Shown here in pieces: positions 3,383 through 11,417 of a stretch of 64,000 nt of DNA. The DNA is from Thermoproteota archaeon (GTDB lineage Archaea > Thermoproteota > Thermoprotei > Gearchaeales > Gearchaeaceae). The notes below the pieces were generated by a model. The model made no database searches and was not told where the DNA came from. It saw only the letters and a list, made by a program, of their open reading frames with translations. The stretch is taken from contig JAVVGF010000003.1 in the NCBI GenBank assembly GCA_032249235.1, positions 96,001 to 160,000 of the forward strand, read 5' to 3'. The position numbers were made by a program, and so were the translations under genes. Each line of letters starts with the position of its first letter. The first letter of the stretch is position 1.

Positions 3383-3754
3383 ATGGCTGAAATAAGCGAA
3401 GATGAGCTTTTAAAACAATTCGAAATAGCTAAAGAATTAATCGATAAAGATCCTAACGAAGCTGGAATGTTATTATATAAGATAGCTGAATCTTCTTTAA
3501 TCATACTCGCTAATAAATACGTTCCTTATTATTATGAGAAAATTATAAAAAGCAAAAATACTAAAATTTATTTATTATTTGAAATAGCAAACGAGTTGTC
3601 TAAAAAACTTAATAAAAACTTTAAGAAATATTGGTATGAAGCTTGGGAACTAAGAATAGAGAGCCATGAATATAATTTAACTTCTGATTTTTTAAAAGAA
3701 AGAATTAAGACTATTGAAAAAATTATAAATTTTATTAAGCACAAAAAGAAATAA
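3383..3754 (+). CDS. PaREP1-family protein (HEPN-like)
   Basis: EAGMLLYKIAESSLIILA and WYEAWELR resemble the PaREP1 consensus (KLYKAAEEAVKALA...W..AW.LH). Confidence 0.7.
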   Translation: MAEISEDELLKQFEIAKELIDKDPNEAGMLLYKIAESSLIILANKYVPYYYEKIIKSKNTKIYLLFEIANELSKKLNKNFKKYWYEAWELRIESHEYNLTSDFLKERIKTIEKIINFIKHKKK

Positions 3755-3799: not shown

Positions 3800-3828
3800 T
3801 TGGACAAGTCCAAGTGCATATATTTAAA
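3800..3828 (+). promoter_or_regulatory. Palindromic operator (TTGGAC-AA-GTCCAA) plus TATA box upstream of the oxidase operon
   Basis: Perfect 6-2-6 inverted repeat at 3800-3813, TATTTAAA at 3821-3828, ATG at 3851. Confidence 0.5.
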
Positions 3829-3850
3829 TGATATTCATGTTCTCTAGCAT

Positions 3851-4006
3851 ATGAGCAAGAAAATGAATAGAATTACAGCATTGCTTTTAGATAATCTTTG
3901 GTTCTGGGCTATATTAGCTATGACGATAAGTCTAGTCTATGGTGCATGGGCTTTAATAGAGGCATCGAACATGCATATGCCTTCTTTAACTCCAAAGGGG
4001 TGGTAG
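3851..4006 (+). CDS. Small single-TM protein, probable accessory subunit of the heme-copper oxidase (not in the ORF track)
   Basis: Translated by hand: MSKKMNRITALLLDNLWFWAILAMTISLVYGAWALIEASNMHMPSLTPKGW (51 aa), one hydrophobic helix. The stop is 1 nt before the subunit II ATG. Confidence 0.8.
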   Translation: MSKKMNRITALLLDNLWFWAILAMTISLVYGAWALIEASNMHMPSLTPKGW

Positions 4007-4007
4007 A

Positions 4008-4526
4008 ATGACGCTCTTTCCAAGAAGTTTGGAAGAGTGGTATAAACCATTTACTAAAGAGGAAAAAACATGGTTTATTCTCGCTTTAATTGTAGCTATA
4101 ATACTTGCTGCCACAACAATTAGTTGGTTTTACATAGATCCATATCATCAAGTCCCTGCTAAAAGCTATGCCATAAGTCCTAGTGAGTTTGACAAATTAG
4201 CTACGACGTTCGCAAATTCATATAAAGATAAAATAGTACCTGAGGGCGTTGATGTATATATTGTTGCTCATCAATTCTATTTCAATCCTGCAAAAATTAT
4301 TTTGAAAAAAGGTGTTACTTATAGAATTCATGTTTCTAGTGCCGATGTGCTTCATGGATTCAGCATAATAGGAAAGGATGGGACCGTTTATAATTTAATG
4401 ATAATGCCAGGAATGGCATACATTATACATATAGTTTTCGATAAAGCTGGAATTTATGAATTACGTTGTAATGAATATTGCGGTTCCGGCCATCATTTAA
4501 TGATTGCTACTATAGAGGTGGTTTAG
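4008..4526 (+). CDS. Heme-copper oxidase subunit II (CuA), B-family/eNOR-like
   Basis: Single N-terminal TM helix; CuA motif DVLHGF...CNEYCGSGHHLM. Confidence 0.93.
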   Translation: MTLFPRSLEEWYKPFTKEEKTWFILALIVAIILAATTISWFYIDPYHQVPAKSYAISPSEFDKLATTFANSYKDKIVPEGVDVYIVAHQFYFNPAKIILKKGVTYRIHVSSADVLHGFSIIGKDGTVYNLMIMPGMAYIIHIVFDKAGIYELRCNEYCGSGHHLMIATIEVV

Positions 4527-4527
4527 T

Positions 4528-6201
4528 ATGACAGAAGCCGGTTTTAGACGTTGTATGGCAACTGGATTGCTAGTTCATTTAGCTTCCCAAAGGCTAATAG
4601 TATTTAACTTCTTGATGGGAATAATTTCTCTAATAATAGGAGGTATTGCAGCGATTTTCGTAGGTTTAACTAGGTCATCTTTTGTTCTCCTTGAGCAGTT
4701 AGGATTACAAAATACGTATTATTATTGGTTGAATTTGCATGGCTTTAATATGCTAATATTCTGGATATTATGGTTTGAAGTTGCATTGATATATTTTGTT
4801 GCTACAATTTTGCTCAATGCACCATTATATAGCATAAGAGTCGGCTGGTTGTCTTTCATTCTAATGTTGATTGGTTGGTTAATAATGAATGTAATGAATA
4901 TTGCAGGAGATTCGATTGTCTTATTCACTGCTTATATTCCTTTAAGCGCTCCTCCTATATTTTACATAGGTTATCTGCTTTTTGCATTAGGCGTAGCTGT
5001 AGCTGTAATTAATTTCTTTTTAACGTTATATAAAGCAAGAATAGAAGGTAGATATTCTGGTCATCTTCCTTTGGTTACATGGGGTGCAGGTATTGCAGCA
5101 ATAATTGGCTTAGTAGTCGTAGCATATGGAGCCTTTGCAATTACTTATGCTTTATTGTTCAGTTCAAATTATGGATTAAGCGGAGATGTAATGTTTTACA
5201 GATGGTTCTTCTGGGGGCTTGGACATTCTGCACAATATGTTAACGTTACTGCAATGGTTGCAGTTTGGTATGCTTTACTTGCTTTAGGAACAGGCTTTGT
5301 TGCAGCAAAATTTGTAAATGAAAGATATGCAAGAATAGCATTTGCGATGTATACTTTATTCGTAGTTCCTGGAATAGGACATCATATATTAGTTGATCCT
5401 GGATTCTCAGCAATCTTTAAGCAAGCAAGCGGAAGTGTCGGTTCTCACTTTTTATCTGTTCCTTCGATGTTGCATGCTTTAGCTTTACTTGGAGGTGTTG
5501 AAGCAACTTTAAGAGCTTCAGGTCATACAAGCCTTTTAGGTTGGCTAAAGAAAATACCATGGAGGAATCCTGCAATATCAGGTATGCTTCTATCTATGAT
5601 TTTGTTTGGAATTGGAGGAATAATAGCCCAACCACAAACTACACTTCAACCAAATCTCTTGTTCCATAATACGCTATGGGTTCCAGGTCATTTTCATTTA
5701 ACAGTTGTCGGAGGTACTACCTTAGCATTTATGAGCTTATCATATTATGTTGTTCCTTTGTTAACAGAGAAAAAATTAATTAGTAGTAAAATGTCTATCA
5801 TACAAATCTATCTCTTCTTCATCGGAATATTTATACTAACTTTAAGTATGGCTTGGTTAGGATGGTTAGGTTCTCCTAGAAGAACGTTCATTAGTTATGA
5901 GGAATTAATAGAAAACGGTTGGTACGTTCCTGCTACATTCCTAGGTATAGGTGCTTTATTGGCTATAGTAGCAGGGATTTTATTTGTTTTAAACATGGTC
6001 TTAACTGTTTTAATAAGCAAGAAAGCAAGTTCAGCATCTGAATTATTAGAAGGATTAGTAAGTCCAATCGAGATAAAAGACGAAAAGGCAGTAAGAAAAA
6101 CAGGTTCATTAGTTATAGTTATAATATTGCTAGTCTTTATTTTGTTAGCTGTTTACTTTGCAAGTTTTATACGTTTAGAAGGTTTGCCAAAGATTTGGTA
6201 A
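4528..6201 (+). CDS. Heme-copper oxidase subunit I, eNOR-like sequence with active-site Tyr retained
   Basis: Six His ligands: H71 (HGFNML), H233 (GHSAQY), H285/H286 (GHHIL), H388/H390 (GHFH). Polytopic membrane protein. Confidence 0.93.
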   Translation: MTEAGFRRCMATGLLVHLASQRLIVFNFLMGIISLIIGGIAAIFVGLTRSSFVLLEQLGLQNTYYYWLNLHGFNMLIFWILWFEVALIYFVATILLNAPLYSIRVGWLSFILMLIGWLIMNVMNIAGDSIVLFTAYIPLSAPPIFYIGYLLFALGVAVAVINFFLTLYKARIEGRYSGHLPLVTWGAGIAAIIGLVVVAYGAFAITYALLFSSNYGLSGDVMFYRWFFWGLGHSAQYVNVTAMVAVWYALLALGTGFVAAKFVNERYARIAFAMYTLFVVPGIGHHILVDPGFSAIFKQASGSVGSHFLSVPSMLHALALLGGVEATLRASGHTSLLGWLKKIPWRNPAISGMLLSMILFGIGGIIAQPQTTLQPNLLFHNTLWVPGHFHLTVVGGTTLAFMSLSYYVVPLLTEKKLISSKMSIIQIYLFFIGIFILTLSMAWLGWLGSPRRTFISYEELIENGWYVPATFLGIGALLAIVAGILFVLNMVLTVLISKKASSASELLEGLVSPIEIKDEKAVRKTGSLVIVIILLVFILLAVYFASFIRLEGLPKIW

Positions 6202-9376: not shown

Positions 9377-9503
9377 AATTTCGTAAGTAATGTAAATTTA
9401 AAAACTTATTGCTAAACAAGACCTCATGGTAAGAATATTTTTAGTGAACGCCTTAAATATTCGGGGGTTAAGTTTTTTAACGCTGTTAATCAGAGAAAAA
9501 GCG

Positions 9504-10826
9504 ATGCAAGCGTCTTACGAAACAAAACAAGAAAAAGGTATCGTGATCTCTAATCTTAAAAAGAACGAAAAGATTAGAATTTTAGTTTTAGGTAGTGGCT
9601 TTGCCGGTATGTCTTTCGTAAAATCCTTCATTAAAAACATAAGCGATGAGCTTTGCAACAAAATAGAGCTTATAATCGTTACAAAAAAGGCTTATCATTT
9701 GTTCACTCCTCTTCTCTATCAAGTAGCCACAGGCCTAGTGAACGAGTATCATATACTTGATCCGATTAGGAATAAAAATAAAAAAATAAATTACGAAGTC
9801 ATAGAAGCTGAAGTTTTAGATATTGATTTAATTCAAAAGATTGTAATAACCAACTCATTCGAAATTCCTTATGATTATTTGATAATCGCATTGGGTTCTG
9901 TAACGAATTATTTCGGTATAAAAGGAGCTAGTGAATATGCCATTCCTTTAAAAAATCCTGAAGATGCGATCAAGATTAGGAATAAAATAATCGAATCTTT
10001 TGAAAAAGCATCGCTTCTAGCAAAAAATGATAAAGAAAGAAGATTGTTATTAACATTCGTTATAATAGGTGGTGGGCCAAGTGGTGTTGAGCTAGCTGGA
10101 TCTATCAAAGATTATTTGCGTCAACTTTGCAAGAAATATTATCCTATTGATCCTAAAGAAACACGCGTAATAATTGTTGAGGCAATGAATAGATTGCTTC
10201 CTCAAGCTAGAGAAAAGACATCAGAAAAGTGCAAAAAATCTCTTGAAAAAGCTGGTATAGAAATTTTATTGAATACAAAAGTACTAGCGATTGAAGAAGA
10301 TGGTGTTATAACTAACGAAGGAGTAAAAATTGAGTCATATAATGCTTTTTGGACTGCAGGTATAAAGAGCAATCCAATTGTTGAAAGGCTCCCTGAAGAA
10401 TTGATCCCTAAGAAAAAAGGAAAAATCATTGTAGATGAATACTTTAGACTTCCAAGCTTTCAAAATGTTTTTGCAATAGGAGATAATGCATGGATTTCAA
10501 ATAAATCTAAAACTGATCCTGTTCCAGCAATGGCATCTGCTGCTGTTCAAGAAGGTAAATATTTAGGCGAATATTTGGCTAATCTGCTTTCTAAGAAAAG
10601 CAACTTAAAGCCATTCAAATATAAGGACTTTGGTATGATGTTTTCTTTGGGAAGATTTGATGGATTAGTAGAGTTTCCTAATGGTTTAGTTATATCAGGG
10701 TTCTTAGGATGGATAATTTGGAGAATGGTTCATTTAGTTAAAATAGCAACGATAAGAAATAAGCTTGGAGTTATGTTTGACTGGACAATGTCTTTATTTA
10801 AGAGAAGAATAATAACTAGAGTTTAA
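9504..10826 (+). CDS. ndh: Type II NADH dehydrogenase (NDH-2)
   Basis: Two Rossmann motifs (GSGFAG, GGGPSGVE), FTPLLYQVATG, WTAG, AIGD, FKYKDFG. Start moved to ATG 9504; the ORF is open from 9426. Confidence 0.88.
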   Translation: MQASYETKQEKGIVISNLKKNEKIRILVLGSGFAGMSFVKSFIKNISDELCNKIELIIVTKKAYHLFTPLLYQVATGLVNEYHILDPIRNKNKKINYEVIEAEVLDIDLIQKIVITNSFEIPYDYLIIALGSVTNYFGIKGASEYAIPLKNPEDAIKIRNKIIESFEKASLLAKNDKERRLLLTFVIIGGGPSGVELAGSIKDYLRQLCKKYYPIDPKETRVIIVEAMNRLLPQAREKTSEKCKKSLEKAGIEILLNTKVLAIEEDGVITNEGVKIESYNAFWTAGIKSNPIVERLPEELIPKKKGKIIVDEYFRLPSFQNVFAIGDNAWISNKSKTDPVPAMASAAVQEGKYLGEYLANLLSKKSNLKPFKYKDFGMMFSLGRFDGLVEFPNGLVISGFLGWIIWRMVHLVKIATIRNKLGVMFDWTMSLFKRRIITRV

Positions 10827-10841
10827 AAATTTAGAACTAAA

Positions 10842-11417
10842 CTAAGAAGATAGATTTCTAAATATTTGATATACTCTTTCTAGTTGATTCGGCAAAACAT
10901 ACTCTTTTTCAATTATATATCCTTGTTTATTAATGATATAATAAACATCAGGATATCCTTCAGGATCGTAAAGTTGTGTAGTCTTAGGATCGCTAACACC
11001 AATATACCAATTCTGCTTCATGCCTCCTATAAATCTTGAAGCAAATTCTTCCATAGACATTCCTGGCTGATTAAGATTGTTGTAAAGTTGAATTGTAATT
11101 ATGATCACACCCAACTCATAAAATTTAGGATAATAATTCTTCGCTAACAATTCTGCACCATTCCAACAAGAACTGCACCAAGTTGCTACAAACCAAATTA
11201 AAACGGGTTTTCCTTTAAAATCGCTTAGTTTAACTATTGTCCCATTTATCAATTTTAAAGAAAAGTCTTCAGCTAAGTTCTTATTTGAACTAATGGGTGT
11301 GATTGGATTCGATGGACTTGTATTTGATTGTAGGTTTATAAATATTAAAATTATAAAGAAAGCAAGAATAACTAAACCAATCAATAATGATTTTGATTTC
11401 TTCTTAGCTTTTTTCAT
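10842..11417 (-). CDS. Membrane-anchored TlpA/ResA-like thiol-disulfide oxidoreductase
   Basis: N-terminal TM helix, LSDFKGKPVLIWFVATWCSSC. Confidence 0.85.
   Translation of the reverse strand: MKKAKKKSKSLLIGLVILAFFIILIFINLQSNTSPSNPITPISSNKNLAEDFSLKLINGTIVKLSDFKGKPVLIWFVATWCSSCWNGAELLAKNYYPKFYELGVIIITIQLYNNLNQPGMSMEEFASRFIGGMKQNWYIGVSDPKTTQLYDPEGYPDVYYIINKQGYIIEKEYVLPNQLERVYQIFRNLSS

Follow-up and report, generated by a model that had tools for sequence, protein, structure and literature searches.

Can an archaeal heme-copper enzyme that looks like the nitric oxide reductase eNOR, while keeping the active-site tyrosine of the oxygen reductases, be an oxidase, or does it reduce NO? The question is raised by a compact plus-strand operon at positions 3851–6201 of a 64,000-nucleotide stretch of DNA (the window; positions 96,001–160,000 of the forward strand of contig JAVVGF010000003.1, assembly GCA_032249235.1) from a Thermoproteota archaeon. 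The host is a small-genome member of the family of SCGC AAA471-B05, which the genome table of Murali et al. (2024; PMC11214002) lists under the GTDB order Gearchaeales, and its genome is a draft of 18 contigs (1.43 Mb, 91% complete). The operon consists of three open reading frames (ORFs) with 1-base gaps between neighbours: a small ORF, subunit II and the catalytic subunit I (Table 1). Judged by its sequence, it very probably encodes a three-subunit, CuA-containing, B-type heme-copper O2 reductase of the B9 subfamily, related to eNOR and free of the Tyr-to-Gln change of that family.

Subunit I has the COX1 fold and carries six histidines on helices II, VI, VII and X, as expected in the superfamily of heme-copper oxidoreductases (HCO). 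H71 and H390 are the ligands of the low-spin heme, H388 that of the high-spin heme, and H233, H285 and H286 those of CuB. An alignment of 16 rows shows no variation at H71, H233, H285, H286 or H388 and almost none at H390, and the six ligands are kept in 33–36 of the 36 rows of the query's archaeal clade in an alignment of 247 rows. Helix VI reads FWGLGH233SAQY237, in which H233 and Y237 align with His233 and Tyr237 of Thermus thermophilus ba3; a tyrosine therefore stands four residues after the first CuB histidine, as in O2 reductases of the A and B types. In these enzymes the His-Tyr pair forms a cross-linked cofactor. Tyr occupies position 237 in 76 of the 247 aligned relatives. An AF2 model of subunit I (pLDDT 81, pTM 0.86) has the same best solved match as its sequence, the Thermus ba3 subunit I (sequence, 1.8e-46; fold, TM 0.80), and no eNOR structure is found among the solved matches of either search.

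Subunit II matches its Thermus ba3 counterpart with an E-value of 1.2e-14, and because residues 18–171 align to residues 14–166, its Glu19 is the equivalent of ba3 Glu15 at the channel entrance; position 19 is Glu or Asp in seven of seven rows. A CuA-containing subunit II and a single analogue of the K-channel characterize the B family, whose ba3 member uses Y237, S309, T312, Y248 and E15 of subunit II (Dataset S1 of PMC11214002). Here the corresponding set is Y237, S313, Y248 and E19(II), with two exceptions to the ba3 channel: H316 stands in for T312, which is also the case in eNOR, and V244 for Y244. The K-channel-like residues of subunit I itself are Y248, S313 and H316. A first-pass annotation, made from the letters of the DNA, had pointed to the six histidine ligands, the HSAQY motif and a CuA site in subunit II. 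The ligands and the motif are borne out by the alignment and by the codons (Table 1), and the CuA site by its ligands (H116, C154, C158, H162 and M165), which are invariant in seven of seven archaeal orthologues.

By homology to ba3, electrons would enter at CuA in subunit II and pass through the low-spin heme to the binuclear site formed by the high-spin heme on H388 and by CuB on H233/H285/H286. There O2 would be reduced to water, with the H233-Y237 pair supplying the fourth electron and a proton. Protons would arrive through a K-channel analogue made up of E19(II), Y248, S313, H316 and Y237, in which H316 takes the place of the ba3 threonine. The O2 chemistry, the cross-link, the metals, the heme types, any proton pumping and the electron donor are what we infer for this enzyme.

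A word-indexed protein search for relatives of subunit I gave 1111 matches at E-values up to 1e-10 among 8000 scored candidates, and among the 120 matches listed the helix VI pattern is H..QY in 58 and H..QQ in 57, while in the other 5 it fell too early in the sequence, on the wrong site. Relatives are encoded in 588 of the 599 candidate stretches from the genome collection, and of the best 80 loci nine carry H..QY: five archaeal ones (L001–L005), one from Heimdallarchaeota (L007) and three from Actinomycetes/Gaiellaceae (L006, L009 and L037). In the remaining 71, which represent many bacterial phyla, the pattern is H..QQ. The query has a median identity of 63% to the 35 rows of its archaeal clade, 43% to 29 Gaiella-type rows, 40% to 4 Heimdall-type rows and 41% to 131 Gln-bearing H..QQ rows, against 28% to 16 ba3-like H..VY rows; the ba3-like protein of the host genome itself is 32% identical. 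Gln in place of the cross-link tyrosine is the inclusion rule for eNOR (PMC8756737), and the eNOR of Rhodothermus marinus carries Q245, S318, H321, Y256 and E(II)21 in its site and channel (Dataset S1 of PMC11214002). At the columns that correspond, 130–131 of the 131 H..QQ rows show Q, S, H and Y, and by these residues they are eNOR.

Position 237 is Tyr in 36/36 rows of the archaeal clade, 4/4 Heimdall, 29/29 Gaiella-type and 16/16 ba3-like rows, and Gln in 131/131 eNOR-type rows. Among these 216 aligned proteins it is the only column that splits eNOR from all Tyr-keeping clades, so that the operon carries the O2-reductase state and fails the inclusion rule for eNOR. The other eNOR markers lie in helices VII and VIII (S283, Y304, M306, Y307, A309 and V310), and at each of these places the query's clade has a different residue. 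A further twelve columns, E84, Q236, N239 and H316 among them, are at least 95% conserved across a superclade of Gaiella-type, archaeal, Heimdall-type and eNOR proteins and rare in the outgroups. The channel of eNOR (S318, H321, Y256 and E(II)21) likewise finds its match in S313, H316, Y248 and E19(II), but these residues do not discriminate eNOR because they are common to the whole superclade.

The motifs on which the first-pass annotation had based an eNOR-like look (FR.C..TGL, HG.NMLIFW..FE.A, SM[IL]H, GHFH.TVVGGT and GHSSQQ), are all present in the retrieved sequences and are indeed shared with eNOR, but since they extend across the superclade they are ancestral to it rather than specific to eNOR. 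Its suggestion of an intermediate between O2 and NO chemistry finds no support, as the query's clade has a non-eNOR residue at every column that marks eNOR. The archaeal clade has an invariant signature of its own (W226, I283, Q299, A300, S301, S306, H307, S310, A367, Q368 and P369), which the Heimdall-type members lack. Within it, helix VIII displays a polar run of Q299, S301, S306, H307 and S310, followed by S313 and H316; neither the Heimdall and Gaiella clades nor eNOR have this run, which may form an extended proton path.

Could the enzyme, despite Tyr237, still work mainly or partly as a NO reductase in the cell, as a bifunctional O2/NO enzyme and a stepping stone towards eNOR? The shared channel residues would allow it, as would E84, Q236, N239 and the small subunit, all of them common to eNOR, and B-family oxidases reduce NO slowly in vitro (sections 7 and 10 of PMC11214002). 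In Dataset S6 of the same work, the entry matched by name to the relative G001/G011 scores zero for every NO reductase family, and a NirS-like gene is found in both genomes with the closest orthologues (G011, 90% identity; G009, 82%). This co-occurrence is the only hint of a link to NO, and since both genomes belong to a single genus they do not count as independent cases. The gene is limited to G011 and G009, with none in G005, G006, G010, G012 or the host genome, where a tblastn search with the relatives' gene also gave no match. Its function is putative, and the ORF lacks a CXXCH heme c site. No nirK, nirS or narG model has a match in the 91%-complete host genome, Tyr237 is universal in the clade, and none of the eNOR-marking substitutions has occurred; O2 reduction by the ba3 mechanism is therefore the most likely role, and a principal or partial NO reductase activity is unlikely.

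The NirS-like ORF is unusual in its own right. It encodes 575 amino acids (aa; L084:937-2664 in G001 = G011; also G009:C13:7050-8180) and combines an N-terminal membrane helix, a cupredoxin domain with a C...C...H..M copper motif and a cytochrome-d1 propeller (PF02239, 1.1e-54). A broader proposal, that the archaeal B9 enzymes are dual-purpose in vivo, respiring O2 and removing NO as functional intermediates between oxidase and eNOR, is a speculative one with a small chance of being right. If it held, the sister genus would gain a two-step route from nitrite to N2O with a membrane-anchored cupredoxin-cytochrome-d1 'NirS', and the eNOR channel (H316, E84, Q236 and N239) and small subunit would pre-exist eNOR itself, leaving only the Tyr-to-Gln exchange and a few changes in helices VII/VIII to be made.

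The trees place subunit I of the window near eNOR without making it the nearest. They were built with FastTree on 247 rows and with IQ-TREE (LG+C20 PMSF) on 71 rows and 549 columns, and the supports quoted are ultrafast bootstrap/SH-aLRT values from IQ-TREE; both trees, and a fast LG+F+G4 search, agree on the branching order. All eNOR rows fall together (100/100), implying that Tyr gave way to Gln just once. The sister of eNOR is the Heimdall Tyr clade with the motif HTAQY (96/92). The query's archaeal clade of 13 rows (100/100) joins the pair of Heimdall and eNOR at 91/83, the Gaiella-type clade branches next (83/88), and the whole superclade is separated from ba3-like and other outgroup rows at 98/91. 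Subunit I thus groups with eNOR and not among the ba3-like enzymes, and the first-pass proposal of an O2-reducing enzyme akin to eNOR is borne out; as immediate sister it gives way to the Heimdall-type clade. A tree in which the archaeal and Heimdall clades are made to join is about 12 units of log-likelihood worse, and the AU test does not reject it (p-AU 0.14 and 0.18).

For rooting, the ba3-like rows are preferable, because the H..HY outgroup rows lack two canonical histidine ligands; this rooting gives the same ingroup order. The H..HY rows belong to a divergent HCO-like clade of 15 representatives (among them P0132, P0129, P0178, P0152 and P0201) with F-H-x-x-H-Y in helix VI, in which LYH replaces the CuB His-His pair and GYFH replaces GHFH, so that two canonical histidines have become tyrosines. 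At the base of the superclade, the H..QF representatives P0151, P0212 and P0240 form a clade. They are related to an extra HCO-like ORF of 500 aa in a Pseudomonadota metagenome-assembled genome (L014), which starts near position 3685, immediately upstream of the gene for eNOR subunit I, and has the helix VI motif WGGGHVLQV, without Tyr.

The same data bear on whether the operon encodes a plain ba3-type (B1) oxidase that resembles eNOR only on the surface. Among solved structures ba3 is the best match, and a tree constrained to join the archaeal clade with the ba3-like rows costs 26 units of log-likelihood and is not rejected at p-AU 0.07 (LG+F+G4, fast searches); the link to eNOR accordingly needs both the tree and the shared characters for its support. 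Against a B1 enzyme, the twelve superclade columns unite the query with eNOR and are lacking in the ba3-like rows, the superclade is well supported, the DNLW small subunit is common to eNOR operons, and the median identity to eNOR exceeds that to the ba3-like rows. The host, moreover, has a separate ba3-like gene (L082, with GHPLVY). A plain B1 enzyme is on this evidence very unlikely.

Whether the TAT codon might be an assembly error, as the first-pass annotation had asked, was checked in contigs from four sequencing runs (X3, X4, X5 and X7) that are not marked as possible sources. None has an alternative letter in this codon. X3, X4 and X5 show no difference over positions 4755–5309/5325, and X7 shows four over 4852–5325, the nearest to the Tyr codon being a synonymous C>T at 5244. 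X3, X4 and X5 cease to cover the stretch at about 5352 (X3 adds short high-depth pieces), and X7 alone spans it whole. An artefact of assembly, a chimeric contig or a decaying pseudogene, which the draft state of the genome and the presence of only the other paralogue type in the genus-mates G005 and G006 might suggest, can be set aside, as the four runs agree, the frames are intact and tightly coupled, and a 91% identical orthologue with HSAQY occurs in L001 (in G001 = G011).

The probable O2 reductase of the window is not a new class of enzyme. Nine B subfamilies are distinguished in Dataset S4 of Murali et al. (2024; PMC11214002), one of which, B9, includes a protein of Heimdallarchaeote LC_2 and sequences from hot-spring metagenomes. 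Dataset S6 scores the genus SCGC-AAA471-B05 with one A, one B1 and one B9 enzyme, the other two Gearchaeales genomes with one B9 each, the genome AG1 with one each of A, B1 and B9, and Heimdall LC-2 with one A and one B9. The genome of L003, tied to its row in this table by the name AG1, has exactly three HCO genes: one A-like, one ba3-like and an orthologue 67% identical to the query. Since the other two are A-like and ba3-like, the L003 orthologue, which falls in the query's 100/100 clade, must be the B9 entry. The first-pass guess of membership in a B-related subfamily that keeps the Tyr and had been put forward earlier on genomic grounds was thus well placed, as genomes that bear orthologues are scored with one B9. 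The lineage is catalogued in these supplements, and the authors' own tree and figures may already show B9 beside eNOR; sections 5–8 and 10 of the main text do not discuss it, and no further paper on B9 was found in a full-text search of the literature.

Four known systems come closest to the query. The B9 proteins share with the query the active-site Tyr and a CuA-containing subunit II, and the LC_2 member matches the HTAQY clade, to which the archaeal clade is not sister in the present trees. The eNOR of R. marinus (PMC11214002) and its family are 38–45% identical to the query for most members and share its CuA subunit II, the S/H/Y channel with the subunit II Glu, E84, Q236 (three residues after the first CuB histidine), N239, the N-terminal R.C..TGL and an upstream one-helix ORF with DN[LP]W; they differ in the Gln that stands against Tyr237 and in the six markers of helices VII and VIII. 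The R. marinus enzyme did not reduce O2 and is a NO reductase with heme As in both sites (PMC11214002). Thermus thermophilus ba3 (B1; PDB 1EHK and 1XME) has the same fold with 13 helices, and H233, Y237 and Y248 bear identical numbers in it; its subunit II has CuA and the entrance Glu in EK.W, and a one-helix subunit is encoded upstream. It is only about 25–30% identical, has T312 and Y244 in place of H316 and V244, and lacks E84, Q236 and N239. The Gaiella/Actinomycetes clade (HTLQY) keeps Tyr, is 40–46% identical and has the superclade residues and the small subunit, but its members are bacterial, about 520 aa long and without the C-terminal helix, and branch one node deeper than the query's clade. 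This clade is probably subfamily B6 of Murali et al., which lists Gaiella occulta, an equation made by organism name only.

The 51-aa ORF at the head of the operon has no Pfam or NCBIfam match at E-values up to 0.1, yet a homologue sits upstream of the subunit II gene in each of the nine Tyr-type loci aligned. A hidden Markov model built from such ORFs finds a match in 76 of 80 loci, eNOR operons included, a count that is partly so by construction because 15 of its 16 seeds come from the same loci. Complex prediction scored the protein at 0.93, against 0.28 for the best of three controls; of 157 solved complexes, 116 attained this mark, as did 2 of 215 pairs that were mismatched. Agreement between the runs covers at least 92% of contacts, with a pLDDT of at least 82 for the partner, and the predicted contacts involve subunit I residues 137–301 and subunit II. 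Like subunit IIa of ba3, the protein is a single helix encoded directly upstream of subunit II and predicted to pack on subunits I and II, although by sequence it matches no known family. It is thus modelled as, and probably is, a third small oxidase subunit of one helix, which would pack on helices V–VIII of subunit I and on subunit II.

Several observations weigh against a B9 O2 reductase. The B9 label derives from per-genome counts in Dataset S6 and a match of names rather than from a labelled sequence, and two of the four HCO genes in G001 are B9-like, where the table gives the like-named genome a single B9, a mismatch that may mean that the assemblies differ. The nearest characterized relative by sequence is a NO reductase, eNOR, and not an oxidase, and the literature searched holds no biochemical data on any B9 member, so that the case for O2 reduction is built on homology and the conservation of Tyr. 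The heme A synthase family PF02628 was not found in the host genome, which says little because the Sulfolobus control was silent too, and no SoxE or plastocyanin-type electron donor was found in the host genome at its 91% completeness. To these may be added the unrejected ba3-like constraint described above and, for the small subunit, that its passing score may reflect likeness to ba3, whose I-II-IIa complex is solved.

Table 1. The oxidase operon and its surroundings; positions are those of the window.
Feature	Position	Strand	Description
PaREP1/PaREP8-family gene	3383-3754		family match 6e-08
Palindrome TTGGA-N4-TCCAA	3800-3813	.	just 5' of the TATA-like box; candidate operator
TATA-like box ATATATTTAAAT	3819-3830	+	about 25 nt ahead of the first ATG; kept in L001
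Small ORF, 51 aa	3851-4006	+	single-helix protein; motif LLDNLW..W
Subunit II, 172 aa	4008-4526	+	Pfam COX2 6.6e-07; N-terminal membrane helix and cupredoxin domain with CuA site
Subunit I, 557 aa	4528-6201	+	Pfam COX1 (PF00115) 1.2e-58; heme-copper catalytic subunit, 13 helices
H233-S-A-Q-Y237 codons (cat tct gca caa tat)	5224-5238	+	His cat 5224-5226; Tyr TAT 5236-5238
HTH_10 transcription regulator, 184 aa	6267-6821	+	Pfam HTH_10 1.8e-08; adjoins the operon
Type II NADH dehydrogenase	9426-10826		Pyr_redox_2 and NDH2_C
Membrane-anchored thioredoxin-like redoxin	10842-11417		motif WCSSC

The spacing of the TATA-like box would fit a leaderless or short-leader archaeal transcript. The palindrome next to it is a tentative operator: TTGGA/TCCAA half-sites lie at the equivalent place in L001 (about 5250–5300) with a different spacer, and its count alone is not significant, with 2 copies in the 1.43-Mb genome where about 1.4 are expected from base composition (an estimate). 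In L003, L004 and L005 the equivalent upstream place is occupied by CCTAA-N4-TTAGG. HTH_10 genes also adjoin the orthologous operons in L001, L002 and L004 (the loci checked), and the neighbouring HTH_10 protein is likely to be a local regulator of the operon, for which the upstream palindrome may be the site. A PaREP1/PaREP8-family gene lies directly upstream of the operon. The type II NADH dehydrogenase and the WCSSC redoxin, encoded 3–5 kb downstream, may be partners of the oxidase in the respiratory chain and in the maturation of its copper sites.

B9-like genes (above 50% identity) are present in seven of nine genomes of the family, the host included, and in none of the 32 other genomes of the class searched. 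They fall into two paralogue types, A (the query together with its G011 and G009 orthologues) and B, which is 53–58% identical to the query. The host genome has only type A and its genus-mates G005 and G006 only type B (57–58%), a split that could arise from differential loss, transfer or a binning issue. Besides the window enzyme, the HCO set of the host comprises an A-type oxidase (788 aa, SoxM-like) and a ba3-like one (L082, 540 aa). For a genome of 1.4 Mb, a trio of terminal oxidases (A-type, ba3-like and B9) would point to fine tuning to oxygen in hot-spring mats.

For the wider family, the value of the enzyme is that of a close Tyr-keeping comparator for eNOR, useful for evolutionary work. 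NO reductases arose several times from oxygen reductases, as argued by Murali et al. (PMC11214002), and here the step from oxidase to NO reductase is visible at close range, as one clean column (237) and about six marker columns in helices VII and VIII. A thermophilic B9 enzyme with the channel residues and the small subunit of eNOR would be a natural scaffold for Tyr/Gln swaps, which would ask what else changes the substrate and whether proton pumping survives.

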